Counted from the first letter of the stretch, positions 27,167-53,931 are shown. The stretch is DNA of 64,000 nucleotides from Candidatus Omnitrophota bacterium (GCA_037131245.1 JBAXRK010000002.1:28143-92142); one strand, 5' to 3'. The notes: generated from the letters alone by a model not told the origin. Made by a program: numbers and translations.

Positions 27167-27178
27167 TAGAGGGTGACA

Positions 27179-29317: not shown

Positions 29318-29325
29318 CAGGCAGG

Positions 29326-33692: not shown

Positions 33693-34055
33693 ATGGCACC
33701 GCATAAAGCAGTTCCGCGCCCCTGGGGTTCTTACACGGTCATCGACAAGGGGAATGGTTTCAAGGTCAAGCTAGTTGAAGTGCTCCCCGGCAAGCGTTTG
33801 AGTTTGCAGAGCCACGAGCATCGCAGCGAGCACTGGGTGGTGGTGCAGGGCACGGCCAAGATCACCAATGGCCGCAACACGCTTTTCTTAGACGAGAACC
33901 AGAGCACGTATATCCCCAAGAAGACGCTGCATCGGCTGGAGAATCCTGAAGCGCGCCGGAAATTGCGCATTATTGAAGTGCAGTGCGGCGGCTATACCGG
34001 GGAAGACGATATCAAGCGTTTTGACGACGATCACGGCCGGCCGGTGGAAGCGTGA
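33693..34055 (+). CDS. cupin-domain protein (mannose-6-phosphate isomerase type II C-terminal-like)
   Basis: 120 aa. [21 protein letters not shown] cupin motif 1. AAGGAGA RBS. Confidence 0.6.
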
Positions 34056-34915
34056 AGGGCATTATCCTCGCGGGCGGCACGGCGACGCGCCTTTTTCCCA
34101 TTACCAAGTCGGTTTCCAAGCAGCTCCTGCCGGTTTACGACAAGCCGATGATCTATTATCCGCTGTCGGTCTTGATGCTCGCCGGTATCCGGGAGATCCT
34201 GATCATTTCAACCCCGCAGGCTTTGCCGCAGTTCGAACAGCTTTTTGGCGACGGCAGCGACCTGGGCCTTAAGATCAGCTACGCCGCGCAGCCCAAGCCG
34301 CGGGGGCTGGCCGATGCTTTTATTGTGGGGGCCGATTTTATCGGGCGCGATAGCGTGGCTTTGGTTTTGGGCGATAATATTTTCTTCGGGCATGACCTTT
34401 ACGCGTCGCTGCAGCAGGCGGCCAAGCGGACGGCGGGCGCGACGGTTTTCGGTTATTACGTTAAAGACCCTGAACGCTATGGCGTGGTGGAATTCGATGC
34501 CAATGGCAAGGCGCTTTCTATTGAGGAAAAACCTTTAAAGCCGCGTTCCCGCTGGGCGGTGACGGGGCTTTATTTTTATGATAATCAGGTGCTTGAGATC
34601 GCCCGCAAGGTGAAGCCTTCGGCGCGCGGCGAGGTTGAGATCACGGATATCAATAATGCTTATTTGGAAAAGGGCCAGTTGCAGGTGGAACGACTGGGCC
34701 GCGGGTTTGCCTGGCTGGATACCGGCACCTATGAATCATTGATCGACGCGTCGGTGTTCATCAAGACGGTCGAGGACCGGCAGGGGCTTAAGATCGCCTG
34801 TATCGAGGAGATCGCGTACCGGATGGGCTATATTAAGAAAGACCAGTTGCTCCGCCTGGGGGCGGCGATTAAAACGTCCTACGGCGATTATCTTAAGCTG
34901 GTGGCCGAGGAATAA
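34052..34915 (+). CDS. rmlA: glucose-1-phosphate thymidylyltransferase
   Basis: GTG start overlapping the cupin stop. [38 protein letters not shown] is a near-canonical RmlA N-terminus. 287 aa. Confidence 0.9.
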
Positions 34916-34916
34916 T

Positions 34917-35486
34917 ATGCCGTTTACGTTCACGCCTACCGCGATCGCGGATGTCATTGAAGTTGAACCGAAGCAGTTCCCGGATGGCCGGGGATTCTTT
35001 GCTGAACTTTATAAAAGCACGGATTTTAAGGCGGCGGGTATTACCGTCGGCTTATGCCAGGTGAATCAGTCCCGGTCGCAAAAAAATGTTTTGCGTGGCC
35101 TGCATTATCAGCTGAAGCCCCAAGCGCAGGCCAAACTGGTGGCGGTGCTGCGCGGCGAGATCTTCGATGTGGCGGTGGATATCCGCAAAGGCTCCCCGAC
35201 TTTTGGCCATTGGGTGGGTGCGACACTTTCCGAAACGAATAAAAAGATGCTTTACCTTCCCGAAGGCTTCGCGCACGGTTTCTGTGCTATTTCCGACGAG
35301 GTCGAGATCATGTATTTTTGTTCCAATGAGTACGCGGCGGCTTGCGAGCGCAGTATTATCTGGAACGATCCGGCGATCGGCATCACCTGGCCGGTGGCGG
35401 CGCCTATCTTGTCGCCCAAGGATGCCGGCGGTGTTCTGCTGGCCGCGGCCGAGACCAATTTCGAATACCGGAAAGCCTGTTCATGA
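34917..35486 (+). CDS. rmlC: dTDP-4-dehydrorhamnose 3,5-epimerase
   Basis: 189 aa. RGLHYQ, FAHGF and cupin-fold RmlC signature residues. Confidence 0.85.
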   Translation: MPFTFTPTAIADVIEVEPKQFPDGRGFFAELYKSTDFKAAGITVGLCQVNQSRSQKNVLRGLHYQLKPQAQAKLVAVLRGEIFDVAVDIRKGSPTFGHWVGATLSETNKKMLYLPEGFAHGFCAISDEVEIMYFCSNEYAAACERSIIWNDPAIGITWPVAAPILSPKDAGGVLLAAAETNFEYRKACS

Positions 35487-36343
35487 AGAAAGTGGTCATT
35501 TTCGGTGGCGACGGGCAGCTTGGCAGCGAGTTCCAGCAACGGTTGCGGAGGTTGCAGGTGCCTTTTGTCGCGGCCGATATCGCCCAGTGCGATATTACCA
35601 AGGCATTCGCTGTTGAACATTTTCTGGAAGAGCAAAAGCCCGACCTGCTGATCAATTGCGCGGCGTACAATCAGGTGGACCTGGCGGAGGATAACCCCGA
35701 GGCGGCGTTCGCGGTGAATGCCAAGGCGCCGGGCATCCTGGCACGGGCCTGCGCGGGGCGCGGTATTTTTCTGGTGCATTACAGTACCGATTACGTTTTT
35801 GACGGGACCAAGGGCCTGCTTTATACGGAGCAGGACGCGCCTAACCCGCTGGGCGTTTACGGCGCCAGCAAGCTGGAAGGCGAGCGGCAGGTGCAGGCCG
35901 CGGGCGGGAATTTTCTGATCTTCCGCCTTAGCTGGGTGATCGGGCCGGGGCAGCAGAATTTTCTATACAAATTACGCCAGTGGGCAGAAAAGAACGATAC
36001 CCTTAAGATCACCGAGGATGAAGTGTCGGTGCCGACCTTTACCCGGACGGTGGTTGATGTCACGCTGGCGGCCCGTAGCGCGGGGCTGAAGGGCTTGTGG
36101 CATCTGACCAATTCGGGGCAGGCGTCGCGCTTTGAACTGGCGACCGAATTCTTCCGGCTGGCGGGCATTAAAAAGACACTGATTCCTGTTCCGGTGAGCA
36201 GTTTCAATTTAAGGGCCCTTCGGCCGCCCTGTTCGGCAATGTCGAGCGCGGCCCTTGCCAAGGCGCTGGGCATTGTTATTCCCGACTGGCGGGCCGGGTT
36301 GAAGAAATACATGAGCGAACAGATAGAAGGGGCTGTGGGATGA
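35483..36343 (+). CDS. rmlD: dTDP-4-dehydrorhamnose reductase
   Basis: Start ATG 35483 (MKKVVIFGGDGQLG), in frame with track ORF 35342 and overlapping the rmlC stop. YSTDYVFDG active-site region. Confidence 0.85.
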   Translation: MKKVVIFGGDGQLGSEFQQRLRRLQVPFVAADIAQCDITKAFAVEHFLEEQKPDLLINCAAYNQVDLAEDNPEAAFAVNAKAPGILARACAGRGIFLVHYSTDYVFDGTKGLLYTEQDAPNPLGVYGASKLEGERQVQAAGGNFLIFRLSWVIGPGQQNFLYKLRQWAEKNDTLKITEDEVSVPTFTRTVVDVTLAARSAGLKGLWHLTNSGQASRFELATEFFRLAGIKKTLIPVPVSSFNLRALRPPCSAMSSAALAKALGIVIPDWRAGLKKYMSEQIEGAVG

Positions 36344-37323
36344 TGAAAATCTTTGTGACCGGCGGATCGGGATTTATCGGGTCGAACTTTATCCATTACC
36401 TGCTTGGCGCGCGCGGGGACGTGGAGCTGGTTAATTTCGACGCGCTGACTTATGCCGGCAATCCCGACAATCTGGCGGCTCTTAAGGGCCAGGCGCGGCT
36501 GACGTTCATTAAAGGCAATATCACGCATCATGACGCGGTGCGCGCGGCCATGCAGGGTGCGCAGGCGGTGGTGCATTTCGCGGCGGAGTCGCATGTGGAC
36601 CGCAGCATCACGGGCCCCGAGATCTTCACCCAGACCAATGTGTTGGGCACGCAGGTGCTGCTGGATATAGCGCGCGAGCTGGGCATCAAGCGTTTTGTGC
36701 ATGTATCGACCGACGAGGTTTACGGCTCGCTGGGCGCGACGGGCTATTTTATGGAAGATACACCGCTGGCGCCCAATAGCCCTTATTCCGCCAGCAAGGC
36801 CGGCAGCGACCTTCTGGTGCGGGCGTATTTTCATACCTTCGGTTTCCCCGGGATCATTACCCGCTGTTCCAATAATTACGGGCCGTATCAGTTTCCGGAG
36901 AAACTTATTCCACTGATGATCTCGAATGCCCTCGAGGGCAAACGCCTGCCGGTTTACGGCGATGGGCTTAATGTGCGCGACTGGCTTTATGTGGAAGACC
37001 ATTGCCGGGCCATCGCGGCTGTTCTTGACCGCGGCAAGCTGGGCGAGGTGTATAACATCGGCGGGCATAATGAGTGGAAGAACATCGACATTGTTAAGCT
37101 GATCTTAAAGGAACTCGGCAAGCCCGAGAGCCTTATTGAATTCGTGCCCGACCGGCTGGGCCATGACCGCCGTTATGCCATTGACCCCGCCAAGATCGGC
37201 CGTGAGCTGGGGTGGCAGCCCACCATTCTTTTTCCCGAAGGCATTAAACATACCATTGCGTGGTATGTGAACAATCCACAATGGATCGCCCGCATCAAGA
37301 GCGGGGCGTACCGTAATTCGTGA
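36340..37323 (+). CDS. rmlB: dTDP-glucose 4,6-dehydratase
   Basis: 327 aa. VTGGSGFIGSNF Rossmann motif and the YSASKAGSD catalytic YxxxK. Overlaps rmlD by 4 nt. Confidence 0.9.
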   Translation: MMKIFVTGGSGFIGSNFIHYLLGARGDVELVNFDALTYAGNPDNLAALKGQARLTFIKGNITHHDAVRAAMQGAQAVVHFAAESHVDRSITGPEIFTQTNVLGTQVLLDIARELGIKRFVHVSTDEVYGSLGATGYFMEDTPLAPNSPYSASKAGSDLLVRAYFHTFGFPGIITRCSNNYGPYQFPEKLIPLMISNALEGKRLPVYGDGLNVRDWLYVEDHCRAIAAVLDRGKLGEVYNIGGHNEWKNIDIVKLILKELGKPESLIEFVPDRLGHDRRYAIDPAKIGRELGWQPTILFPEGIKHTIAWYVNNPQWIARIKSGAYRNS

Positions 37324-37362: not shown

Positions 37363-38001
37363 ATGAGAATTGCTGATTTTGTCAATAAGTACCAACATGT
37401 GCCGATCCTAACGACCGATCTCTTGTTGACTGGAGTGGCTGATCCGGCTTCTTTGCGTGTTCAACTGGCGCGCTGGGTAAAGGCCGGGCATTTGCTTTCT
37501 TTACGAAGCGGCGTTTATGTTCTGGCTCCGTATTTTCAGAAGGTTGTGCCGACCGTTTATTTTCTGGCGCAAGCGTTGAAAGAGCCCTCATATGTGAGCC
37601 TGGAGAAAGCCCTGGAATTTCACGGGCTTATTCCGGAGGCGGTTTTTACGGTTACGTCGGTGACAACCCGTCGACCGGGGTCGCTGGTAACGCCGCTGGG
37701 ACGGTTCGATTTTCAGCATATCCGGGCCGGATTGTTCTGGGGTTATTTTGCGGTCACCATCGGCGCTCAAACCGGGTTCATGGCTTATCCGGAGAAAGCC
37801 CTGCTTGATCTTTTTTATCTGAGGGCACCGGGGGTGACGCGCGATTATCTGGAAGGTTTGCGTTTGCAGAACATGGAAAAAATTGATACCGGGCGGCTTC
37901 TTGAGTACGCCCAAAAGTTTGGCAAGCCGGGGATGCTGCGCGCGGCCGGGATGGTCGCCGCTTACAAGAAGGAAATGCTGGCGCAGGAGAAGTCTGTATG
38001 A
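37363..38001 (+). CDS. abiEi: type IV toxin-antitoxin system AbiEi-family antitoxin / transcriptional regulator
   Basis: 212 aa. N-terminal AbiEi_4-like pattern (LLSLRSGVYVLAPYF). AT-rich promoter-like island at 37324-37362. 4-nt overlap with the downstream AbiEii gene. Confidence 0.6.
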   Translation: MRIADFVNKYQHVPILTTDLLLTGVADPASLRVQLARWVKAGHLLSLRSGVYVLAPYFQKVVPTVYFLAQALKEPSYVSLEKALEFHGLIPEAVFTVTSVTTRRPGSLVTPLGRFDFQHIRAGLFWGYFAVTIGAQTGFMAYPEKALLDLFYLRAPGVTRDYLEGLRLQNMEKIDTGRLLEYAQKFGKPGMLRAAGMVAAYKKEMLAQEKSV

Positions 38002-38801
38002 AGGATCATTGTTTGGAGCTGACGGCCAGGCAGTCAACGCCGGCATCAAAATATAATATCCTTAGGGAATATGCCCAGGCTTATGTGCTTAAGCTGCTTC
38101 AGGATGCCGGGCAATTTCGCCATTATGCTTTTGTCGGCGGGACAGCGTTGCGGTTCCTTTATGATCTGCCGCGGTTTTCCGAGGATCTTGATTTCTCCGT
38201 GGTCACGCCCTCGCCGCTGGCGTTCGGCGATTTGATGGCCAGGATCAAGCGGGACCTGTTGCTGGCGGGGTATCAGGCGGATGTTGTCTATAACGATACC
38301 AGGACGGTATGGTCGGCTTTTATTAAATTCGAGGGTTTGCTGTTCGAGGCCAGGCTTTCGCCCATGAAGAGCGCCAAGTTCTCCATCAAGGTTGATATTG
38401 ATACCAAACCTCCCGCGGGCGCCGTGGTGGTGACGACGCTGGTGAACAAGTTTTTCCCGGTCGCGTTCTTGACCTACGACCTTCCGTCGCTGTTTGCGGG
38501 TAAGACGCACGCGATCTTGTGCCGCACGTATATCAAGGGCAGGGACTTTTATGATGTCGCCTGGTATTTGTCGAGGAAGAAGGGGTTGCAGCCGAATATG
38601 AACCTGCTTGCGGCGGCATTGGCACAGACGGGTTGGGCGGGAGAGCCGGTAACCGAGGCGTCCTGGCGAAAGGTGTTGGGTCAGCGGGTAGCGCAGGCCG
38701 ACTGGAAGGTTGTGGAGCGGGATGTGGTTAATTTTCTTGAACGGCCGGATGACCTTCAGGTGTTGACTCGGGAGAATTTGCTGGCTTTGATCGGGGTGTG
38801 A
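37998..38801 (+). CDS. abiEii: nucleotidyltransferase AbiEii-family toxin (DUF1814)
   Basis: 267 aa. YAFVGGTALRFLYDLPRFSEDLDFSV is the hallmark AbiEii/NTase motif. Confidence 0.7.
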   Translation: MKDHCLELTARQSTPASKYNILREYAQAYVLKLLQDAGQFRHYAFVGGTALRFLYDLPRFSEDLDFSVVTPSPLAFGDLMARIKRDLLLAGYQADVVYNDTRTVWSAFIKFEGLLFEARLSPMKSAKFSIKVDIDTKPPAGAVVVTTLVNKFFPVAFLTYDLPSLFAGKTHAILCRTYIKGRDFYDVAWYLSRKKGLQPNMNLLAAALAQTGWAGEPVTEASWRKVLGQRVAQADWKVVERDVVNFLERPDDLQVLTRENLLALIGV

Positions 38802-39109: not shown

Positions 39110-40561
39110 ATGAAACATAAACTTCTTTGCATCGCGTTGATCCTATTGCTGGCATGCGGCCATGCGACGTTGGCGCTGGCCCAGGGGGCACCCGCGGCTG
39201 GCGCGGCGGTTACCTCGGCGATCGCCGGGTTGACGGCTTCTGCTGCAGGGGTGCCAGCGGTAACAGCCACGGCTTCTGCGACGGAGAAGTTTTCCACGGA
39301 TTACCGCATTGACCCCGAGAATGTGCTTATTGTTGAGGTGTATTACGGCAAAGACGAGAAGTTCTCCCGGCAGGTGCGCGTGTCATCGACCGGCGATATC
39401 AACCTGCCTTATGTCGGGGACGTAGCGGCGGCGGGATTAACGGTAGGCGACCTTCAGAAAAAGATCAACAAGCTCTTCGATAAGGGGGAATCCATTCCGC
39501 CCCAATCGAACGTGCTGGTCCAGGAGTACAGTACGGTCAGCATCCTGGGCGAGGTGAAAATGCCCGGGGCCTACCCGATCAAAAGCACGCTCACCGTCCT
39601 TGAGCTTATTTCGCTGGCGCAGGGTTTAAACGAATCGGCTTCCGCCAATGAAGTGAAGGTCATCCATACCAATCTTGACGGCACAAAAACAACGAACGCG
39701 GTGCGCGTTTACGATATCATGAACAAGGGCGCCGCGCTGGGCGATAATATTTTCCTGCATTCACGCGATGTGGTGATCGTCCCCAAGAGCATCGTGACGA
39801 TCGTCGGCGAGGTCAAAGCCCCGGGCTCATTTCCTATCCGCGGCTATTTGAGCCTGGTCGAGTTGGTGGCGCTCGCTGGCGGTTTTAATGATGTTGCCTC
39901 TCCCAATGAAGTAAAGATCATCCATACGAATGCTGACGGCACCAAAACCCAAAGGGTCGCGGCGCTTTACGACATCATGAACCGGCAGGCGATCGATAAC
40001 GACAATCTCCTGCTTTCGTCAGGGGATGTGGTGATCGTCCCTAAAAGCATGGTGACGATCATGGGCGAAGTCAAATTCCCGGGGACCTTTCCGATCCGCA
40101 GTTATCTGACGGCCAGTGAGCTCATCGCGCTCGCCGGGGGTTTTAATGATGTGGCTTCTCCCAGTGAAGTTAAGATCATTCATACGCATGCCGATGGCAC
40201 CAAGACTCAACGCCTGGCCCCGCTTTACGCCACCATGAGCAAGGATGGGACTGATAGCGACAATCTGCTGCTTTCGGCCGGAGACATGGTGATCGTTGCC
40301 AAAAGCACGGTGACCATTATCGGCGAAGTTACCAAGCCGGGTGTGTATCCGACCCGCGGGCACTTGACACTCATTGACCTGGTGGCGATGGCTGAAGGCT
40401 TTACCAAGTTTGCCGCGCCCAATGAAGTCAAAGTGATTCATAACGATACGACCGGGCGCAAGAGTGAGCGTACCGTTCCGGTTTATGATATGATGAAAAA
40501 AGGTGCCATCGATGATGACAGTTTGCTGCTTGCTAACGGAGATGTGATCTTCGTTCGTTAA
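39110..40561 (+). CDS. polysaccharide export lipoprotein with four tandem SLBB (soluble-ligand-binding beta-grasp) repeats
   Basis: 483 aa. Signal peptide with an LLAC lipobox. Four ~86-aa repeats (NEVKxIHTxxDGTKT...GDxVIVPKSxVTIxGEVKxPGxxP). AGAGGAG RBS. Confidence 0.65.
   Translation: MKHKLLCIALILLLACGHATLALAQGAPAAGAAVTSAIAGLTASAAGVPAVTATASATEKFSTDYRIDPENVLIVEVYYGKDEKFSRQVRVSSTGDINLPYVGDVAAAGLTVGDLQKKINKLFDKGESIPPQSNVLVQEYSTVSILGEVKMPGAYPIKSTLTVLELISLAQGLNESASANEVKVIHTNLDGTKTTNAVRVYDIMNKGAALGDNIFLHSRDVVIVPKSIVTIVGEVKAPGSFPIRGYLSLVELVALAGGFNDVASPNEVKIIHTNADGTKTQRVAALYDIMNRQAIDNDNLLLSSGDVVIVPKSMVTIMGEVKFPGTFPIRSYLTASELIALAGGFNDVASPSEVKIIHTHADGTKTQRLAPLYATMSKDGTDSDNLLLSAGDMVIVAKSTVTIIGEVTKPGVYPTRGHLTLIDLVAMAEGFTKFAAPNEVKVIHNDTTGRKSERTVPVYDMMKKGAIDDDSLLLANGDVIFVR
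39560..40555. repeat. 4 x 258-nt coding tandem repeat (SLBB modules)
   Basis: Repeat landmarks NEVK(V/I)IH at ~39646, ~39904, ~40162 and ~40420, i.e. an exact 258-nt period. Confidence 0.6.
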
Positions 40562-40578: not shown

Positions 40579-41628
40579 ATGAAGGTATTGATCCTGGGGG
40601 ATACCGACCCATTTATTTATAACATTATCAGGTCGTTGCTTCCTTTTAAGATCGATTGTCATGTGTTTGCCCGCAAAAGAATGTGGGCTGTCTCCTTGTC
40701 GAAACATTGCCGGGGTTATATCGATGTGTCCGGTTTGTCCGACGAGGCGGTGCTCGACCGGATCAACAGCTACTGCGTCAGCCAGGGCATCAGCGTGGTC
40801 ATCCCGGGAGATTTTCGGGGCAGCCGTATCCTGGTGGCGCGACGCGATCGGCTGGCCGCCGGAGTTTCATTGTTCCCCTCCGCCGACATGGCGACCCTGG
40901 AAACATTGCACAACAAACAGTCCTTTGCCCGTCTGCTTAAGACATTGGGTATTCCCCAGCCTAAAATGGTTATTGTTGACAGTTTTTCCCAACTTGAAGC
41001 TTTGGATACCAGATTTCCATGCATTGCGAAACAGGTGCACGGCGAAGGCGGGTCTTTTGAGCGGTACTTGAAGAATGACCGGGAGGCTTTATTGGCTAGC
41101 GGCCGGTCAGCTGCCGATTTTCCTTTGATGGTACAGGAATTTATTCCGGGAACGGACCTGTGCCTGAATATTTTTGCGCGGCAGGGGAAAGTGTTGGCCT
41201 GCACGATGCAGGAATATGTAACGCCCGAGAAAATGAGATTCTTTTCGTCCGGGGCCCTGCTGGAGCTGGGGCAAAAAATTGTGGCGGCAGTAAATTTCGA
41301 GGGGGTCCTGAATTTTGATATCCGGCGTGACAGCCGGGATGGCAGTTTCAAGTTTATCGAGTGCAATCCGCGGTTTTGGGGGTCGATGTATGCCACCACC
41401 TGCCGGGGCATGAATTTCCCCGCGCTTGGCCTTGGGCTGCTTGCAACGCCGGAACCGCTGCAACATGACAGTGGTGATAATGAATACCTGGTGACGCGCC
41501 CGGCGGCGCGCAAATTACTTAAGGGGGCTTTGGCGTGGCGGGATATCCCGCGGCTTACTCGTGATGACCTTAAGGGCCAGTTCGCGGATCCTCTTTCATT
41601 TCTTTACACGGTCTTCTTATGGAGTTGA
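40579..41628 (+). CDS. ATP-grasp domain enzyme
   Basis: Start moved to ATG 40579 (MKVLILGDTDP). Pre-ATP-grasp and ATP-grasp regions with the C-terminal FIECNPRFWGS motif. Confidence 0.6.
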   Translation: MKVLILGDTDPFIYNIIRSLLPFKIDCHVFARKRMWAVSLSKHCRGYIDVSGLSDEAVLDRINSYCVSQGISVVIPGDFRGSRILVARRDRLAAGVSLFPSADMATLETLHNKQSFARLLKTLGIPQPKMVIVDSFSQLEALDTRFPCIAKQVHGEGGSFERYLKNDREALLASGRSAADFPLMVQEFIPGTDLCLNIFARQGKVLACTMQEYVTPEKMRFFSSGALLELGQKIVAAVNFEGVLNFDIRRDSRDGSFKFIECNPRFWGSMYATTCRGMNFPALGLGLLATPEPLQHDSGDNEYLVTRPAARKLLKGALAWRDIPRLTRDDLKGQFADPLSFLYTVFLWS

Positions 41629-41633
41629 AATAA

Positions 41634-42782
41634 ATGCCTGCAGCACCCGGTATCGATGGCCTCCGTATAGAGGTCGTTGGCAGTATTGATGACTTCCTTG
41701 CCCTGAAACCACAGTGGGACTCTTTGGCCGCTTCGATGGAGCGCGCGGTGGTTTTTTTTACGCATGACTGGATCAGGATATGGATCGAGTCCTTCGCCGC
41801 GGACAAGCCTTTGTATATTATTTTGGTCCACGATGGCCCGCAGCTGATCGGGATCCTGCCGCTTTATAAAGAAATATACTTTACCCTCAAGATCTTTCGT
41901 CAGGTCTGCTTGCATTCACTGACTAATAGTTGTTCGGCAGTTTCCGGGGTTATCGCCCGGCAGGCGGATATGGCCCGGGTGCTGGAGGCGGTGGTCTCTT
42001 TCCTGGGCCGGGAACAGCGTCATTTTTCGAGAGTGATCCTTGAGTTCGTTCCGTCGGACCTTGGGGTCGTGGAGCCTCTGCAGCAGGCCTGCGCGAAGGG
42101 CTGGGCGCAGATCTCGGTCAAACCATGGAACGGTTCATATTATCTGGATATCGACGGTGATTTTGAGGCGTACTCTAAAGGCTTGGGGAAAAGTTCCCGC
42201 AAGAATTTGAGGCAAAAGACAAACTGGATGGAGAAAGAAGGCGGTGTCAGGCGGGAAGTTTGTCAGGACTATGACCCGGAGGTCTTTCAACGGTTCCTGG
42301 ACCTGGAGGATACCGGTTGGAAGAAAGAGCTCGGGCGTCCGATCAAATGCTGTCCCAAGAGTTCTGAATTTTACCGTTGCGTGGCCAGGACGTTCGGCCC
42401 CAAAGGCCAGTTTTTGATGTTAAGCCTTTTTGTGAATAATAAGCCGGCGGCCATGTATTGTGTCGTGACCCATAACGGCACTGGCCATGCTTTAAAGAAT
42501 GCCGTGAATTACGATGAGCAGGGTTTTGTGAGGTTTTCGCCGGGACAGATGATCAGCCAGGATATGATCCGCGCTTTTTTTGAGCGGGGGTTGAAGCGGC
42601 TGGATTTTTACGGTTGTTGTTATCCGTATCAATCCCATTGGGCCGACAAGGTCAACCGGAAGCACGAGATCACGATCCTTAAGCGCAGCGACTTTTTGTC
42701 ACGCTTGTGTTTTTGGGCCAAGGACCGGCTGAAAAAGCATTCTTCGTCCTGTGGCAGCGAGGACGGATTAAAAAAGATCTGA
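41634..42782 (+). CDS. FemAB-like / CelD-like GNAT acyltransferase (Acetyltransf_6)
   Basis: 382 aa. Architecture and C-terminal region resemble the FemAB-related proteins found in PEP-CTERM/exosortase-type EPS loci. Assignment by resemblance. Confidence 0.5.
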   Translation: MPAAPGIDGLRIEVVGSIDDFLALKPQWDSLAASMERAVVFFTHDWIRIWIESFAADKPLYIILVHDGPQLIGILPLYKEIYFTLKIFRQVCLHSLTNSCSAVSGVIARQADMARVLEAVVSFLGREQRHFSRVILEFVPSDLGVVEPLQQACAKGWAQISVKPWNGSYYLDIDGDFEAYSKGLGKSSRKNLRQKTNWMEKEGGVRREVCQDYDPEVFQRFLDLEDTGWKKELGRPIKCCPKSSEFYRCVARTFGPKGQFLMLSLFVNNKPAAMYCVVTHNGTGHALKNAVNYDEQGFVRFSPGQMISQDMIRAFFERGLKRLDFYGCCYPYQSHWADKVNRKHEITILKRSDFLSRLCFWAKDRLKKHSSSCGSEDGLKKI

Positions 42783-42792
42783 GATAAGCCAC

Positions 42793-44037
42793 ATGAGTTT
42801 ACCGGCTGATACAAAAGTAGACCTGGGTTTTTCCCCCTGTTCGCCTCTTTTTCTTCCCTGGTTTCATTTCCCGGATGACGGATCCCCGGTTCATCGCCTG
42901 CATAAACTGGCTTTTGCCTGTCAATGGCAGCGTCGGCAGAAGCTCAAACTGGTCATTAAAGCTGTTTTATGGCCCGTTCAGGCGGCCCTTGAGGCGGCCC
43001 GCAATGTGAAGGAACACGGCGAGCTGATCCGGCAGGCTCATGGCCTCAGCCCGCTGGCGCAATGGTGTCGGATGGTTTACCTGGCGAATGTCTACAATAT
43101 TTCACCGAACTCATTTTACGATTACCGACTTTTTGAAGATCAGAATTTTAAGAAAGCCAGCCTTTTTATTCAGACATGGGAGATGGACGCGTTATATCCG
43201 CAGCTGTTCAAAGGGGTCGACAACGGGATCATCGACGAGAAAACGGTTTTCCTGCGGCAATGCGCGCAGCGCGGCCTTCCCGCGCCGTCGATTACGGCGG
43301 TATTTTCCGGCAGCGGCCAGGTTGACTGGCTGGAAGGCCGGCCCGACGACCTGCCTCTCTGCGACCTGTTCATCAAGTTCACCAGCGAGTCGTGCGGCAC
43401 GGGAGCGGAGGCATGGGTTTACGATAGCGCGGCCCGTGTTTGGCGCCGCGACCTTCAGGCCTGGGATCAGGCAGAGTTCATCAACTATTGCTGTGAACGA
43501 AGCGTTAAGGATCAAAGGCCGGTTCTGCTTCAACGGCGTTTGGTTAACAGCCCTGAGATCGTCGCATTTAGCACCGGCGCTTTGTGCACGTTTCGCGTGA
43601 TCACGTATTTGACGCCCGATGGCAAGGCCGCGTTATTTGCGGCCGGATTGAAGATGCCGATCGGCAAGACGGATGTTGATAATGTGTCTTATCTGGGCGG
43701 GATCGCTGCCGGGGTTGATCTGGAAGAGGGCGTTTTAAGGACGGCCAGAGGCACAAAGTATGGCGCAACATTGATGGAGGTTCATCCCGATACCAAGGCC
43801 CGGATCGCCGGCCACCGGTTGGCCTGCTGGCAGGAGATCGTGAGCATTAGCAAGAAAGCACAGGAAAGTTTTTCGGGGTTTTGGTCGGTCGGGTGGGATA
43901 TTGCGATGACCAAAGACGGTCCGGTCATTATTGAAGGCAACACGTATTATGGGTATGATCTGCTTCAATTGATGGTACAGCAGCCTTTAGGCGAAACGGT
44001 TTTCCCATCGCTCTGTCTTAAGGCAATGGGGAAATAG
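42793..44037 (+). CDS. sugar-transfer-associated ATP-grasp-like protein, paralog 1
   Basis: 414 aa. Clear paralog of the 45035-46264 product (shared N-terminal HRLH and C-terminal FSGFWSVGWDIAMTKDGPVIIEGNTYYGYDL vs FPEIWSVGWDIAMTDQGLVMIEGNTDYGLLL). C-terminal E.N..(Y/P)G resembles the ATP-grasp Mg-binding loop. Confidence 0.5.
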   Translation: MSLPADTKVDLGFSPCSPLFLPWFHFPDDGSPVHRLHKLAFACQWQRRQKLKLVIKAVLWPVQAALEAARNVKEHGELIRQAHGLSPLAQWCRMVYLANVYNISPNSFYDYRLFEDQNFKKASLFIQTWEMDALYPQLFKGVDNGIIDEKTVFLRQCAQRGLPAPSITAVFSGSGQVDWLEGRPDDLPLCDLFIKFTSESCGTGAEAWVYDSAARVWRRDLQAWDQAEFINYCCERSVKDQRPVLLQRRLVNSPEIVAFSTGALCTFRVITYLTPDGKAALFAAGLKMPIGKTDVDNVSYLGGIAAGVDLEEGVLRTARGTKYGATLMEVHPDTKARIAGHRLACWQEIVSISKKAQESFSGFWSVGWDIAMTKDGPVIIEGNTYYGYDLLQLMVQQPLGETVFPSLCLKAMGK

Positions 44038-44042
44038 CCGCT

Positions 44043-45035
44043 ATGGGTATCAAAAAAGTCAAAGATCAGTCAATAGAAACACTGCGGGGTATCGCGGTCA
44101 TCCTGGTGGTGGCGGGTTTTATTGTGCAGGGCGAGTATGCCTTTGTGGGGAGCGGCACGCGGTTCCAGTCGTGGCTGTATTTCATTTATAACTGCCTTGT
44201 GCCCGTTCGCATGCCGCTTTTTACCGTAATTTCGGCGTATCTTTACGCGCATTCCCCCGCCACACGCGAAACGCTGGGCAAGCTGATCCGCGGCAAGTTC
44301 AGCCGGCTGGGGTATCCGTTCTTTGTTGTGTCAACCATCCAATACGTGATCCTTTCCCTCCTGCATGTTCAGGGAGATAACCCGATAGGCGAGATCTACC
44401 GGATCTACCTGTGGCCGTTCCATCAATTCTGGTTTATCTGGGCGATCTTTTGGATCTTTATGCTTATTGGCTACCTGGATTCGATCAAGGCGCTGGAGAC
44501 CACAAGACAATGGTTCGCCTGGCTGGCGCTGTTCACCGTTTGTAATATCGCGCTTGATCCGCCTACACTTCTGGGTTTAAGCGGGATCAATTACCTTTTG
44601 CCGTTCTTCCTGCTGGGATATGGTATCAGCCGGTTCGCGAAAGAGCTTTTTACGCCCCGGATGATCGTTCTTTATACGGTGATGACGCTTTTGACCTACG
44701 CTGTTTATATTTACTTTCGTAAAATACCCCATAGCGGGCCATTTTACAAAACGCTGGCCCTGGCGTGTTCTTTTTCGGTCGTCCCGCTGGTGGTCCATTT
44801 TCGCCGGAATGTCCCGTGGCTAGCCGCCATTGGGTACTACGCGTTCGGGATCCATATTTTCTGCCGCATCGCTATTGCTTTTTTTCAGGTGTTATTAAAG
44901 CGGCTGAATTATAATAATGAACAATTCAATTTCGTGATCCTGCTGGGCGCGGGGATCGTTTGCGCTATCGGTATTCAGCGTCTTGTTGAGCGGGTGCCGG
45001 TGGCAAGAAAATATATCCTGGGGATGAAAGACTGA
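44043..45035 (+). CDS. acyltransferase family 3 membrane O-acyltransferase
   Basis: 330 aa. About 10 TM helices. N-terminal ETLRGIAVILVVAGF motif typical of the Acyl_transf_3 family. Confidence 0.6.
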   Translation: MGIKKVKDQSIETLRGIAVILVVAGFIVQGEYAFVGSGTRFQSWLYFIYNCLVPVRMPLFTVISAYLYAHSPATRETLGKLIRGKFSRLGYPFFVVSTIQYVILSLLHVQGDNPIGEIYRIYLWPFHQFWFIWAIFWIFMLIGYLDSIKALETTRQWFAWLALFTVCNIALDPPTLLGLSGINYLLPFFLLGYGISRFAKELFTPRMIVLYTVMTLLTYAVYIYFRKIPHSGPFYKTLALACSFSVVPLVVHFRRNVPWLAAIGYYAFGIHIFCRIAIAFFQVLLKRLNYNNEQFNFVILLGAGIVCAIGIQRLVERVPVARKYILGMKD

Positions 45036-46264
45036 TGTTTTCCAATTACTGCTCGCCTGTCCGTTTTCCGTGGCTCCGTATTAAGGATGACGGGACGCCC
45101 GTTAACCGCCTGCATTGCTTGATCTATGATCTGCAGTGGAAGAGGGGCGTTAAGGCCAAACTTCTGCTTAAAGCTGTTTTATGGCCGCTTAAGGCTTTCC
45201 TGATGGCGTTCCACGACGCATTTCTTTACGGGCTAACCGTTGAGCGCGATTTTGGGATTAGTCGTTGGAAGCAATGGTGGCGCATGTTCTATTTGGCGAA
45301 CTTCTATAATCTTTCGCCGTATGTTTTTTATAAGTTCGGTTTTTATAAAGACAGTCATTACGCCAGGGCGGCCGCGTTTATTCAGCATATCGAGATGGAT
45401 GCGATGTATCAGGCATTATTTAGTGGCGTTGATAACGGGATCATTGATGACAAGTTAAGGTTTTACGCGCGTTGCCGGGAACGCGGGATCCCGGTCCTTT
45501 TTGTCGAGGTCGTATTCCAGGATGATGGTCGGATCGAATGGCCTGCTGGCGCGGCGAAAAGTTTCCCTTTGTGTGATCTTTTTTTGAAGTATACCAATTC
45601 TTCGCTGGGTGTTGGGGCGGAGGCCTGGAAATACGATGCTGCCGCCCGAACCTGGCAGCGGGACGGCATTTCACTTGATGAACGCTTGTTCATCGCCTAT
45701 TGCGTGAAGAAATCCCGTGCGGAACGCAAACCGGTCCTGGTTCAGCGCCGGCTGGTGAATTCGCCTGAGATAGTTCAGTTTACAACCGGCGCGCTAAGCA
45801 CCTTCCGGGTGGTCACCTATGTCGGGCCTGATGGAAAGATCGGGATCCTATCCGCCGGACTTAAAATGCCGGTGGGGGCGATGGAGGTTGACAATTCCAG
45901 GGCTGGCGGTATTGTGGCCGGGATCGAGCTTGAAACGGGTGTGCTGATGCCGGCGTCCAGCCGGAGTTTCCCTGGGCAGTTAATGCCGCAACATCCAGAT
46001 ACGGGCGCCACCATCTCTGGTCATCGCTTATCTTGCTGGCAGGAAGTGCGGGTGTTAAGCCTTAAAGCCCAGGCGGCTTTTCCCGAGATATGGTCGGTCG
46101 GCTGGGATATCGCCATGACCGATCAGGGCTTGGTAATGATCGAGGGGAATACCGATTATGGCTTACTGCTGGCCCAGCGTTGCATAACCCAGCCGCTGGG
46201 CGAGACAATTTTCCCGACGCTTTGTTTAAATATCCTGGAGAAGAAGTCATGCGCCCGGTCGTGA
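45035..46264 (+). CDS. sugar-transfer-associated ATP-grasp-like protein, paralog 2
   Basis: 409 aa. Paralogous to the 42793-44037 product along its full length. Confidence 0.5.
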   Translation: MFSNYCSPVRFPWLRIKDDGTPVNRLHCLIYDLQWKRGVKAKLLLKAVLWPLKAFLMAFHDAFLYGLTVERDFGISRWKQWWRMFYLANFYNLSPYVFYKFGFYKDSHYARAAAFIQHIEMDAMYQALFSGVDNGIIDDKLRFYARCRERGIPVLFVEVVFQDDGRIEWPAGAAKSFPLCDLFLKYTNSSLGVGAEAWKYDAAARTWQRDGISLDERLFIAYCVKKSRAERKPVLVQRRLVNSPEIVQFTTGALSTFRVVTYVGPDGKIGILSAGLKMPVGAMEVDNSRAGGIVAGIELETGVLMPASSRSFPGQLMPQHPDTGATISGHRLSCWQEVRVLSLKAQAAFPEIWSVGWDIAMTDQGLVMIEGNTDYGLLLAQRCITQPLGETIFPTLCLNILEKKSCARS

Positions 46265-46902
46265 AGATCCTGCTGGTCCTGGCTGCCCTGACCGTTTCAG
46301 GGCTTTTGCTTTACTGGGTTAAATGCCAGTTGGGTGTGAACGTTATCGATGGGTTCCGTTGGGAAGACCGTATCCCGGCGCTTGAGGTGTTCCAGAAGCA
46401 TATCAAGATTGTGCATCCTAAGCCGGGGGAAGAGTTATTTACGGCGACGTTTGAAAATGAGGTGGCCCTGAAGCCCTGGTGGAAGGCTTATGTGCTGGGC
46501 AAAGGACTGGTAGGGGAGCGGCTTTCTCTTGAAGGCCGGGGCGGCTCCAAAGCCCTTGAGATGGCCAATTTATCGGAACTTTTCTGGGTGAAGGAGTACG
46601 ACCACTGGGTGGGGGTTAAGCCGGGTGAGGTGTTCGCTTACCAGGGGTATTGCCGTTTTCCGGCTGGGGCAACGGAGAAGAGGCGGGCTTTTATGGGCAT
46701 TGCCCTTCATGATGCCGCCCGTAAGCCCGTTAAATGGAATGCCGCTGAAAGCACTGTTACTGCCGCGGGTGGCGCTGATTGGCAGGAGCTATCCGGCCGG
46801 CTGGTTGTTCCGGAAGGCGTCGCTTTGATCCGTTTTCGTATTTCCGGTGATCAGCAGGGACCTATCCTGTTTGATGATATCCGCTTGTGGCGGGAAAAAT
46901 AA
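46249..46902 (+). CDS. membrane-anchored hypothetical protein with carbohydrate-binding-module-like C-terminus
   Basis: Start ATG 46249 (MRPVVKILLVLAALTVSGLLLYW), in frame with track ORF 46090. The C-terminal GPILFDDIRLW resembles the terminal strand of galactose-binding-like CBMs. Confidence 0.4.
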   Translation: MRPVVKILLVLAALTVSGLLLYWVKCQLGVNVIDGFRWEDRIPALEVFQKHIKIVHPKPGEELFTATFENEVALKPWWKAYVLGKGLVGERLSLEGRGGSKALEMANLSELFWVKEYDHWVGVKPGEVFAYQGYCRFPAGATEKRRAFMGIALHDAARKPVKWNAAESTVTAAGGADWQELSGRLVVPEGVALIRFRISGDQQGPILFDDIRLWREK

Positions 46903-46954: not shown

Positions 46955-47044
46955 TCTATCTATATTTTCACATTTTAGTGGAATTTCCGCAGGGATTAAG
47001 CGATTATAAACGATTTTAATTGATTCACGGGGGTGCTTGCTTTT

Positions 47045-47227
47045 ATGAAGCCAATGATCAGTAATGAAGACAAGTTTTTAACGACTACACAAGCGGCTGG
47101 GCTGCTTAGTGTTAGCGTTTCAACCCTCAAAAAATTCGTTGGCACCGGCCGGATCAGGGCGATCAAAACCCCTGGCGGTCATTACAGGATCCGCAAGAAG
47201 GATCTGATGGAGAATTTGTATGCCTAA
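47045..47227 (+). CDS. excisionase/MerR-superfamily helix-turn-helix DNA-binding protein
   Basis: About 60 aa. LTTTQAAGLLSVSVSTLKKFVGTGRIRAIKTPGGHYRIRKKDL matches the HTH_17 excisionase-family DNA-binding domain. Start alternatives are GTG 47033, ATG 47045 and ATG 47054. Confidence 0.55.
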   Translation: MKPMISNEDKFLTTTQAAGLLSVSVSTLKKFVGTGRIRAIKTPGGHYRIRKKDLMENLYA

Positions 47228-47252
47228 GACTAAGAAAATCATGGAGGAAAGA

Positions 47253-48386
47253 ATGAATAAACTTAATATTGGCCTATTCAGCGCAAGTTTGGTTTCTTTT
47301 TTGGCAATGTCTGTTCCCGGTTATGCCTATATGTGGCAGGGCGTAGAAATAACCCCCAGAGTCGGCCTTGAGGAGACATACGACAGCAATATTACCAGTG
47401 CCAGTTCGAACAAAATGAGTGACATGCTGACCAATGCTACCCTGGGGCTTGAGATCAAGAAGGAAGAGAAGAACAGCCTTGCCCAGCTGGACATGTCGCT
47501 GGCCCGCCAGATGTTCGCCCAACATTCGGAGTTTGATAGTAATTCGGTCAATCTAAATGGCCGATACAGTGTTGACCTGTCGAAATATGGGTCGTTGACG
47601 GTTGAGGATAATTTTTCCAGGGCGGATTCGTTCTCGACCTTCAACCAGCAGTTTGGCGGGACTAGCGGCCTTTACACCAGAAAGATCAATGATTTCGACA
47701 CCGAGTATAAGCATGATGTCAGCACGGAACTCGCGCTCAGGCTTAATTACCATAATACGCTATCTTATTATCCTTCATCGATCCAGTCCGATAGCGTCAG
47801 TCACGCGATCGGCGCGGGGGTGGATTATTCGTTCAGTTCAGCGAACATGGTTAGCGCGGATTATAAACACATTACTAATGATTTCCGGCCGGGTCCTATG
47901 GCCCATGTCAATGAGGTAACGGCGAATTACCGGCATTATTTCACGCCGCAACTTTTCTCGGATATTGCCGCCGGCGTTGATATGATCAACAATTATCTTA
48001 AGGTTAATAAGTCCTATCCTTTGGTGAAGGCAACGCTGACCAGGAATACGGACCGGAATACTACGTTCAGTGTTTCGCTGGAGCAGAAACATGAATTAGC
48101 GACTACGTCAGAGGATGTTTTTAGTAATTGGGTATTGTCGGGAAAGGTTGTCAAACAATTGAAAGAACGGCTTAAGGGTGACGCTACTGTGTTTTATGGT
48201 TCTGGCAAGTATCTAGGCAGTGGACATAAACTTGTTCTCGGCGGAGTAGATGCGGGTGTTAATTATGAAATCACCAAGAATATGAATTGGCGGTGCGGGT
48301 ACCTTTTTTCGAAACAAAATACTTTTGCTGGGGAAGGCGATTACACTAAGAACATGGTTTACACCGGGATAGTTCTTAGATTTTAA
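47253..48386 (+). CDS. outer-membrane beta-barrel protein of the polysaccharide locus (EpsL-like)
   Basis: Start chosen at ATG 47253 (MNKLNIGLFSASLVSFLAMSVPGYA signal peptide) behind a GGAGG RBS. In frame with track ORF 47220. C-terminal YTGIVLRF beta-barrel signature. Confidence 0.5.
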   Translation: MNKLNIGLFSASLVSFLAMSVPGYAYMWQGVEITPRVGLEETYDSNITSASSNKMSDMLTNATLGLEIKKEEKNSLAQLDMSLARQMFAQHSEFDSNSVNLNGRYSVDLSKYGSLTVEDNFSRADSFSTFNQQFGGTSGLYTRKINDFDTEYKHDVSTELALRLNYHNTLSYYPSSIQSDSVSHAIGAGVDYSFSSANMVSADYKHITNDFRPGPMAHVNEVTANYRHYFTPQLFSDIAAGVDMINNYLKVNKSYPLVKATLTRNTDRNTTFSVSLEQKHELATTSEDVFSNWVLSGKVVKQLKERLKGDATVFYGSGKYLGSGHKLVLGGVDAGVNYEITKNMNWRCGYLFSKQNTFAGEGDYTKNMVYTGIVLRF

Positions 48387-52788: not shown

Positions 52789-53931
52789 ATGGCGGATAAA
52801 AAGTCAGTATATATTGATCGGATCATTGATCTGGCGGCACTTCTGGAAAAGAAGTCGATCTTTCTTTTCGGGCCAAGGCAAACAGGCAAAAGCGCTCTGA
52901 TCCGGCATTTATTATTGGAGCACCGGATCTATAATTTGCTCGAGCATGATACGTTCCTGAAACTTAGCCGCACGCCCCAGTTGATACGCCAGCAGTGCAC
53001 CTCCCGGGACAAGGTGATCGTGATCGACGAGATCCAGCGTTTGCCGTCGTTGCTTGATGAAGTGCATTTGTTGATCGAAGAGCGGGGCATTCATTTTCTG
53101 CTAACCGGATCGAGCGCCAGGAAATTAAGAAGGGGCGGCGTGAATTTACTGGGCGGCCGTGCCAGGGAAAAGCATTTATTCCCTTTGAGTTTCAGGGAGT
53201 TGGGACCGAAGTTCGATCTGACGCGGGCGTTGAATTTCGGGATGTTGCCGTCCATTTATTTCTCGGATGCTCCGGAAGAGGATCTTGAAGCCTATGCGGG
53301 GGCGTATTTAAAGACCGAGATCGCCGATGAAGGCGCAACCCGTAATATTCCGGCTTTCAGCCGTTTCCTGGAAGTTGCCGCTGTATGTAACGGGCAAATG
53401 GTCAATTATTCAAATATTGCCAACGATGCCCAGGTGCCGCGCAGTACGGTTCAGGAATATTTTCAGATCTTAAAAGATACCCTTATTGCGTACGAGTTGC
53501 CGGCCTGGAGAGGGTCCACCAAAAGGAAGCCGGTATCTACGTCGAAGTTTTATTTTTTTGATGTCGGCCTGGCGCGTTACCTGCAAAATCGGAAGCAAAT
53601 TGTTCCCGGGTCAAAGGAATACGGGGAATGTTTTGAAGCTTATATATTCCAGGAGCTGAAAGTCTATTCGGCGTATAAGGGGCGCGGTGAATTGGCCTAT
53701 TGGCGATCGGTGTCCGGGTATGAAGTGGATTTTATTGTAGATGATGAGATCGCGATCGAAGTAAAGGCGACGGCTAATGTAGGGGCCGGCGAGCTGAAGG
53801 GCCTCAAGGCCATTCGCGACGAACAGAAATTAAAACGGTATGTTTTGGCGTGCTGTGTGGACACGCCGCGCGTGGTTGACGGCATTCACATTATGCCCTG
53901 GCGCATGGCGTTAAACGAGTTGTGGACGTAA
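52789..53931 (+). CDS. AAA-family ATPase (DUF4143-containing ATP-binding protein)
   Basis: 380 aa. Walker A GPRQTGKS, Walker B VIVIDEIQ. C-terminal DUF4143-like region. AGAGGAA RBS. Confidence 0.65.
   Translation: MADKKSVYIDRIIDLAALLEKKSIFLFGPRQTGKSALIRHLLLEHRIYNLLEHDTFLKLSRTPQLIRQQCTSRDKVIVIDEIQRLPSLLDEVHLLIEERGIHFLLTGSSARKLRRGGVNLLGGRAREKHLFPLSFRELGPKFDLTRALNFGMLPSIYFSDAPEEDLEAYAGAYLKTEIADEGATRNIPAFSRFLEVAAVCNGQMVNYSNIANDAQVPRSTVQEYFQILKDTLIAYELPAWRGSTKRKPVSTSKFYFFDVGLARYLQNRKQIVPGSKEYGECFEAYIFQELKVYSAYKGRGELAYWRSVSGYEVDFIVDDEIAIEVKATANVGAGELKGLKAIRDEQKLKRYVLACCVDTPRVVDGIHIMPWRMALNELWT

Follow-up and report, generated by a model that had tools for sequence, protein, structure and literature searches.

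Six genes, called g1 to g6 here, form a tightly packed row on the + strand of a 64,000-nucleotide (nt) stretch of DNA from a Candidatus Omnitrophota bacterium (GCA_037131245.1 JBAXRK010000002.1:28143-92142). The whole of this stretch is called the window, and all positions are counted in it. A previous reading of the DNA, made from the sequence alone (the sequence-only reading), had proposed that six packed genes at 40579–46902 decorate an exported polysaccharide, and all six open reading frames (ORFs) are present there on that strand. We scanned the window proteins with the Pfam and NCBIfam libraries, and matches are reported at E ≤ 0.01. The first gene, g1 (40579–41628; 349 amino acids, aa), codes for an ATP-grasp ligase (PF15632, PF02655), and g2 (41634–42782; 382 aa) codes for a GCN5-related N-acetyltransferase (GNAT) of the Acetyltransf_6 family (PF13480). 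Two ATPgrasp_ST paralogs (PF14397), g3 (42793–44037; 414 aa) and g5 (45035–46264; 409 aa), bracket g4 (44043–45035; 330 aa), a membrane protein of the acyltransferase-3 (AT3) type (PF01757). The last gene, g6 (46249–46902; 217 aa), codes for an anchored protein that resembles a carbohydrate-binding module (CBM) in its fold and through its homologs. Upstream, on the same strand, lies a gene for a Wza-like exporter (39110–40561; 483 aa) in which Pfam recognizes a Poly_export domain and four SLBB domains. Downstream, Pfam identifies an HTH_17 gene and a gene for a beta-barrel outer-membrane protein (OMP). The sequence-only reading had described both flanks in this way and had also placed the two paralogs on either side of an acyltransferase with about ten transmembrane segments; the order and the domains agree with it.

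The distances from the exporter to g1 and onward to g6 are 17, 5, 10, 5, −1 and −16 nt, and 142 nt separate g6 from the next gene downstream. The operon that holds g1–g6 probably begins with the exporter gene. The exporter and the six genes have in common a G+C content at third codon positions (GC3) of 0.61–0.66. The genes upstream of the exporter have a GC3 of 0.65–0.71, except for an inserted AbiEi gene with 0.59. Since g1–g6 share their GC3 with the exporter and lie near the upstream genes in this respect, they group by composition with this first exporter. The genes downstream have a GC3 of 0.40–0.60, and the drop begins directly past g6. The six genes are thus placed at the seam between two parts of a large polysaccharide region that differ in composition. 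Neither transmembrane segments nor signal peptides were predicted for g1, g2, g3 and g5. Promoter and terminator scans of the DNA did no better than on shuffled sequence, and Rfam had no match anywhere in the window. Antisense ORFs within the genes (for example 40770–41513, − strand) were treated as shadow ORFs.

The paralogs g3 and g5 both match PF14397 ATPgrasp_ST, with 126 and 127 bits, respectively, against a gathering cutoff of 31.4. This confirms PF14397 as the family of the two paralogs. PF14397 is the sole Pfam match of either protein at the reporting threshold, and neither belongs to PF14305 ATPgrasp_TupA. Among the NCBIfam results there is a partial match to TIGR02291, 'alpha-L-glutamate ligase-like'. 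The two proteins are 53% identical across 399 aa, and the next-best relative of the pair is 49% identical. Each is therefore the closest known relative of the other, which argues for a local duplication as the likely origin of the pair. Patches of similarity at the DNA level also link g5 to g3. Paired ATPgrasp_ST copies are seen in two of the homolog loci as well (L004 and L009). The C-terminal E.N..YG loop of the sequence-only reading is found in both proteins as E-G-N-T-x-Y-G. In an alignment of 32 family members that includes g5 (g3 numbering), K150, D191, K195, G202, Q247, R268, H331, P332, D369 and E381 are invariant. N383 is near-invariant and is kept in at least 90% of the 32 sequences. 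Every family-conserved residue is retained in g5, and at those columns g3 and g5 differ by conservative substitutions only.

The AlphaFold2 (AF2) model of g3 has a predicted local distance difference test (pLDDT) score of 92.7 and a predicted template-modelling score (pTM) of 0.91. In it, the first 160 or so residues form an all-helical region, and the ATP-grasp core makes up the rest. When the model was compared with the Protein Data Bank (PDB) by Foldseek, the top match was RimK (E 2e-7), followed by VanA, D-Ala-D-Ala ligase (Ddl), LysX and L-amino-acid ligases at 10–17% identity. The E values against the RimK/Ddl/LysX group range from 2e-7 to 1e-5. About 270–300 columns align, with a query TM-score of 0.33–0.40, so the N-terminal helical region falls outside the aligned core. 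A profile search of PDB sequences with g3 found no relative and no solved structure for the family, and the literature searched did not mention PF14397 or ATPgrasp_ST by name. With the motifs intact in both and the confidently modelled fold of g3 nearest to RimK, Ddl and LysX, g3 and g5 look like active carboxylate–amine ligases of a structurally unsolved family.

The first gene, g1, matches PF15632 ATPgrasp_Ter with 44 bits and PF02655 with 33 bits, in line with its earlier description as an ATP-grasp ligase. Its best NCBIfam match is NF009402, 'carbamoyl phosphate synthase-like protein' (PRK12767-like), at 68 bits, which is under the cutoff. The E-x-N motif lies within 'FIECNPRF', and the match to PDB entry 2pn1 has an E value of 1e-4. 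On these matches, g1 is a putative carbamoyl-phosphate-synthase-like cytoplasmic ATP-grasp ligase.

The second gene, g2, matches PF13480 Acetyltransf_6 with 75 bits (gathering cutoff 22) over residues 187–333 and is a long GNAT of the CelD/BcsL type. It gave no match to TIGR03019 at E ≤ 0.01 and falls outside that family; it also has no PF02388 match and no PDB relative by sequence or profile. Its locus has no exosortase in the window or in the 10 kb on its 3′ side, and the deacetylase at 50841 shows no model of the XrtA system among its listed matches. When the g2 family profile was aligned by hhalign with the FemAB protein of the pDV1 XrtA locus (Nitratidesulfovibrio (Desulfovibrio) vulgaris Hildenborough, NC_005863, ~46–85 kb), a remote but full-length alignment over 272 columns was obtained (81.6%, E 1e-5). 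On this alignment, 'FemAB-like' is a fair description of g2 at the superfamily level. Of the earlier label 'FemAB/CelD-type GNAT', the GNAT domain and a remote FemAB homology hold, but membership of the TIGR03019 family does not. Just seven close homologs of g2 were detected. They are found in a cluster of the O-antigen-like kind (L012), near a glycoside hydrolase (L013) and among toxin–antitoxin genes (L014), and none of these contexts has ATP-grasp genes. The last of these holds the closest g2 homolog and a short g2-like fragment, with an AAA_14/DUF4143-type gene (L014 432–1757) adjacent.

A different picture of partners came from searching g1 against plasmids. The best plasmid match, in Chelatococcus (31% identity), belongs to an exopolysaccharide (EPS) locus, and 5 kb from it there is a g2-type GNAT (hhalign 97.8%). 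An EPS locus of Skermanella has a g1-type ATP-grasp gene directly behind a g2-type GNAT (hhalign 97.9%). In pDV1, a g1-like ATP-grasp gene (E 1e-16) lies two genes from a g2-type GNAT (hhalign 97.4%), and this pair is located directly 3′ of two membrane acyltransferases within the XrtA locus. The pairing of a g1-type with a g2-type gene, which recurs in four loci, is the best-supported functional link among the six genes.

The acyltransferase g4 matches PF01757 Acyl_transf_3 with 80 bits (cutoff 31) over residues 9–311 of 330. It is made of the AT3 domain only, without an SGNH domain, and there is a weak NolL-like NCBIfam match. About ten hydrophobic segments indicate a polytopic membrane topology. 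The earlier call of a 10-transmembrane O-acyltransferase agrees with both the profile match and these segments.

The mechanical ORF of g6 opens at 46090, inside g5. A start codon at 46249 (MRPVVK) has GGAGAAG ahead of it, and translation from there yields 217 aa, identical to the product annotated at NCBI (locus tag WCO69_01075); 46249 is the real start of g6. The protein has a single N-terminal transmembrane helix, and g6 itself has no Pfam or NCBIfam match, PF02018 included. A word-index search had found g6 alone and made it look like an orphan, but an exhaustive phmmer search overturned this. It returned 129 cluster representatives, and for 49 the E value is below 1e-10. Most have about 210 aa and a common layout: an N-terminal anchor, a conserved juxtamembrane YWxKCQLGI motif and a domain of about 150 aa that ends in FDDI. 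No Pfam or NCBIfam model spans a whole protein of this family. PF02018 CBM_4_9 is matched by 25 of 40 family members, with a best E value of 6.6e-9. The AF2 model of g6 has a pLDDT of 92, and Foldseek aligned it with CBM22, CBM27, CBM16, CBM11 and CBM61 at E values of 1e-8 to 1e-6. Because the model matches CBMs and most of the homologs examined match PF02018, the earlier description of g6 as a CBM-like membrane protein is correct. On its modelled fold and its helix, g6 is predicted to be a membrane-anchored, probably periplasmic, beta-sandwich protein of the CBM_4_9/CBM22-like type. A scan of metagenomes for relatives gave one locus. One homolog of g6 is located between a glycosyltransferase family 4 (GT4) gene and rmlACD in a polysaccharide cluster.

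The surrounding locus is a polysaccharide locus of the Wzx/Wzy type. Upstream of the exporter lie the gene of a priming phosphoglycosyltransferase (32267–33679) and rmlA, rmlC, rmlD and rmlB (34052–37323). An AbiEi/AbiEii type IV toxin–antitoxin pair (37363–38801) sits between rmlB and the exporter. Within the exporter gene, three tandem direct repeats of 258 nt (39602–40375) are 66–74% identical. As they coincide with duplicated SLBB domains, internal duplication seems to be the source of the four-SLBB architecture. Downstream of g6, the small excisionase-type HTH_17 gene (47033–47227) opens the lower-GC half of the polysaccharide region and may be the regulator of that half. The OMP gene (47220–48386) overlaps it by 8 nt. 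Further downstream are a PgaB/IcaB-like deacetylase (50841), a second, short Wza-like exporter, a Wzc-like kinase, gmd, fcl and an epimerase. An AAA_14/DUF4143 ATPase gene (52789–53931) is inserted between the GDP-fucose genes gmd and fcl. This part also codes for two MOP flippases, two GT4 and one GT9 glycosyltransferase. The fall in GC3 after g6, together with the two exporters and two flippases, suggests that two polysaccharide gene sets of different origin have been set side by side.

The locus extends past the window. The 10 kb examined on the 3′ side (L018) contain Wzy_C, three GT2 genes, a third ATPgrasp_ST gene, a GT1 gene, an ATPgrasp_TupA gene and three GT4 genes. The third ATPgrasp_ST gene (L018 15116–16237) and the ATPgrasp_TupA gene (PF14305; L018 17481–18410) lie about 5–8 kb past the 3′ end of the window. 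The former is very divergent, with no more than 25% identity to g3 over its C-terminal part. With g1, g3 and g5, these two bring the ATP-grasp genes of the whole locus to five. Elsewhere in the window, at 21498–31239, a multihaem cytochrome of 1399 aa is encoded, which combines MtrC/MtrF-like domains with some 20 units of the c7 type. It is flanked by a second haem protein, a 667-aa ankyrin-repeat protein and a 714-aa protein whose BamD-like match is weak. Such a neighbourhood is unexpected for a genome labelled Candidatus Omnitrophota.

ATPgrasp_ST genes at this level of similarity are sparse. A search found 71 clusters of the family, and a scan of the genome collection for g3 relatives gave four loci. 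Contexts of a polysaccharide type are found in L009, in L011, in the D. vulgaris pDV1 XrtA locus and on a Shinella plasmid. Five ATP-grasp genes are also present in the metagenomic polysaccharide locus L009 (8509–17975): two of the ATPgrasp_ST type, two of the ATPgrasp_TupA type and one RimK-like. An aminotransferase is packed with them, and a VPDSG-CTERM protein, a GT2, a deacetylase and a flippase lie next to this group. In L011, the surroundings of the ATPgrasp_ST gene include two glycosyltransferases (GT4 and GT2), a GNAT, a methyltransferase, a pyruvyl transferase, an AsnB-like gene and a PEP-CTERM protein. The Shinella gene is flanked by a pyridoxal-phosphate-dependent decarboxylase and a nucleotide-sugar dehydrogenase, and a hydrolase/acyl carrier protein (ACP)/ligase set lies upstream of the decarboxylase. 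By analogy, these neighbours could provide a source of amine and a source of uronate, which fits amide chemistry.

We consider it somewhat probable that g1–g6 are an accessory 'decoration' operon of a Wzx/Wzy-type EPS locus, probably co-transcribed with the Wza-like exporter. The priming phosphoglycosyltransferase, rmlACDB, the GDP-fucose genes, the two flippases and the glycosyltransferases of the locus all speak for such a role, as do the Wzy_C and the two further ATP-grasp genes past the window, the operon-like spacing and common GC3, the fold and motifs of the paralogs, the CBM-like nature of g6 and the ATPgrasp_ST genes of other EPS loci. The cytoplasmic enzymes g1, g3 and g5 would use ATP to convert a carboxylate to an acyl-phosphate and would then join it to an amine. 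The acceptor would be a nucleotide-sugar or the undecaprenyl-diphosphate-linked repeat unit, ahead of flipping. The likeliest reaction would be an amide that joins a carboxyl group of a sugar to an amino acid or amine; alternatively, the amide would join an amino acid to an amino group of a sugar. For the first of these there is a precedent in the sister family ATPgrasp_TupA: Cj1438C, a TupA-like domain, amidates capsule glucuronate using ATP (PMC11800379). The Fem-like GNAT g2 may transfer an acyl or aminoacyl group to an amine in partnership with g1; this cooperation is proposed because genes of their types are paired in other loci too. O-acylation of the glycan would be the task of g4, the AT3 protein, and the anchored g6 may bind the nascent polymer on the periplasmic side of the inner membrane. 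Two different ligations are probably carried out by g3 and g5.

Several observations weigh against a polysaccharide role for the six genes. The closest g3/g5 homologs with full length and readable context (37–39% identity) sit outside polysaccharide loci. In two Nitrospira genomes, an ATPgrasp_ST gene lies directly 3′ of a Mur-ligase/peptidyl-tRNA-hydrolase fusion, and this unusual pairing hints, by analogy, at a non-polysaccharide and possibly peptide-related role for that branch. These fusions (L003 7870–9789 and L002 7894–9792; 76% identical) combine the Mur-ligase M and C domains with peptidyl-tRNA hydrolase. In L007 and L008 the ATPgrasp_ST gene adjoins a PRiA4-like gene, and in L010 it is found among housekeeping genes. 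The copy in L006 is likewise outside polysaccharide loci, and that of Lichenicola is set among SOS and mobile-element genes. As these contexts include the closest homologs of g3 and g5, they are the main caution on a sugar substrate. Against the proposed chemistry in particular, the window has no gene for a uronic-acid-forming dehydrogenase or an aminosugar aminotransferase. Within the part of the region that shares the composition of the operon (phosphoglycosyltransferase, rml genes and exporter), genes for a glycosyltransferase, a flippase and a polymerase are missing. Another homolog of g6 sits beside small pseudopilin-like genes and not beside sugar genes. Finally, the six-gene arrangement was absent from all homolog loci searched for it by blastp. 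The claim that the exported glycan is modified with amino acids or acyl groups is therefore borne out in part: the locus, the domains and the folds fit it, but the closest relatives of g3 and g5 point elsewhere. For the six genes as one module, conservation gives no backing, since no sampled homolog locus repeats the arrangement; the g1-type/g2-type pair is the one part of it that recurs.

The likeness that the sequence-only reading saw to the FemAB and ATP-grasp genes of exosortase-associated EPS systems has a real precedent in the pDV1 XrtA locus. One could take this further and regard the region as an XrtA/PEP-CTERM EPS system that keeps its exosortase, its PEP-CTERM substrates and its PrsK/PrsR regulators at another place of the genome; the six genes would then be its standard accessory set and not a distinct variant. 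We find this doubtful. In its favour, the families of g1, g2, g3/g5 and g4 are all present in the pDV1 XrtA locus, and L011 and L009 combine ATPgrasp_ST with PEP-CTERM or VPDSG-CTERM proteins. The Shinella ATPgrasp_ST gene stands behind a hydrolase/ACP/ligase/decarboxylase cassette, which we take, from TIGRFAMs descriptions, to be typical of exosortase A loci. The exporter exceeds the TIGR03027 cutoff (192 versus 180 bits), but this score is summed over its four SLBB repeats. The OMP, chain-length and kinase proteins are best or near-best matched to models of the XrtA system, yet the scores are under the cutoffs (TIGR03016, 57 versus 91; TIGR03007, 76 versus 279; TIGR03018, 83 versus 231), and g2 misses TIGR03019. 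Exosortase, EpsI, PrsK/PrsR and a PEP-CTERM tail were all unseen in the 64 kb and the 10 kb downstream. For exosortase, the scans covered those window ORFs that reach 150 aa, together with the 10 kb past the window, and no EpsI or PrsK/PrsR was found in either. A regular-expression search over all window ORFs of at least 50 aa found no PEP-CTERM tail. These scans uphold the earlier statement that the window has no exosortase and no PEP-CTERM-tailed protein. An exosortase just past the window, as in pDV1, was also considered, and the 10 kb downstream show none.

The composition of the region allows a second alternative, which we regard as unlikely: the six could be accessory genes that were acquired independently of one another and collected as a mosaic where two polysaccharide loci of different origin meet, some of them possibly inactive. 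The GC3 does change from 0.61–0.71 to 0.40–0.60 directly past g6, and both the toxin–antitoxin pair and the AAA_14/DUF4143 gene have been inserted in the locus. The individual genes have homologs in quite different contexts, their arrangement is not conserved, and the closest homolog of g2 is found among toxin–antitoxin genes beside a fragment of its own kind. However, none of the six ORFs is broken and their motifs are conserved, composition and orientation are common to all six, the gaps do not exceed 17 nt and include two overlaps, and the pairing of g1-type and g2-type genes recurs elsewhere. It is quite improbable, in our judgement, that the ATPgrasp_ST paralogs are instead RimK-like enzymes that add amino acids to a protein or peptide, or that make a small amide metabolite, with their position in an EPS locus incidental or regulatory. 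RimK is a poly-alpha-glutamate ligase that acts on a protein C-terminus. The best structural matches (RimK, Ddl and the L-amino-acid ligases), the partial TIGR02291 match and the nearest homologs, which lie outside polysaccharide loci either next to the Nitrospira fusion or as isolated genes, all lean towards such an activity. The tight or overlapping spacing, the AT3 gene between the paralogs and the exporter upstream lean against it, as does the presence of ATPgrasp_ST within EPS loci of at least five unrelated lineages. No candidate gene for a peptide substrate was identified in the operon, where no search aimed at small ORFs was made. A bolder version of the decoration operon, which we likewise rate as improbable, is that the locus builds a peptide-bearing EPS. 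Up to five ATP-grasp ligases and the Fem-like transferase would then equip the lipid-linked repeat unit with a side chain, either a short peptide made non-ribosomally or a chain with several amides. The product would be a peptidoglycan-like glycopeptide exported via a Wza-type channel, the system would be an exosortase-free derivative of XrtA, and the CBM-like protein would be a new periplasmic handling factor.

Under the preferred reading, a decoration operon, the locus reveals no new kind of system and is an ordinary accessory gene set. It is nevertheless a compact and intact one, with two PF14397 paralogs, a recurring ATP-grasp/GNAT pair and an anchored CBM-like family without a model of its own. 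PF14397 proteins and long PF13480 GNATs occur in EPS loci, but the PDB and the literature searched yielded neither biochemistry nor structures for them, and the locus is a reasonable entry point for assigning function to these families. Amide-linked amino acids and amines on surface polysaccharides alter charge, antigenicity and susceptibility to phages or enzymes. Shuffled accessory sets are usual in surface-polysaccharide loci.

The closest known systems each resemble a part of this locus. The C-terminal domain of Cj1438, from the HS:2 capsule of C. jejuni, is an ATP-grasp enzyme that forms an amide on the C6 carboxylate of glucuronate from ATP and an amine phosphate (PMC11800379). It is the only biochemically shown precedent that we found for the proposed amide chemistry. 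Unlike g3 and g5, which are stand-alone PF14397 proteins with a helical N-terminal domain, it belongs to the ATPgrasp_TupA family and is fused to a GT2; we dropped the idea that it is a PF14397 member because the paper calls the domain TupA-like (PMC11800379). RimK, Ddl and LysX are the closest solved folds to g3 and have the Lys, Asp and Glu-x-Asn ligands of the nucleotide and Mg2+ at the same positions, but these enzymes act on proteins or amino acids and not on glycans. The beta-sandwich of CBM22/CBM_4_9 modules aligns with g6. Known modules of this kind are appended to secreted glycoside hydrolases, whereas g6 stands alone with an N-terminal membrane anchor and the YWxKCQLGI motif.

The pDV1 XrtA locus comes closest as a whole, as the families of g1 to g5 are present there. 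Its ATPgrasp_ST protein is 25% identical to g3 over 95% of the length. The acyltransferases of pDV1 are of the AT3 type, and the locus also codes for a FemAB-family protein, glycosyltransferases, a flippase, an OMP, a deacetylase and proteins for chain length and kinase functions. In pDV1, however, the genes are spread over about 30 kb, and with them occur an exosortase, EpsI, PrsK, a regulator that interacts with sigma-54 and an ATPase associated with XrtA. In the present locus the genes are contiguous, with two copies of ATPgrasp_ST and an additional anchored CBM-like protein, and the proteins of the exosortase system are unseen within reach. Each component of the locus is of a known family. 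Particular to it, beside the lack of exosortase hallmarks within reach, are the number of ATP-grasp genes, the contiguity of the six genes, the tandem ATPgrasp_ST pair around the AT3 gene and the anchored CBM-like protein.

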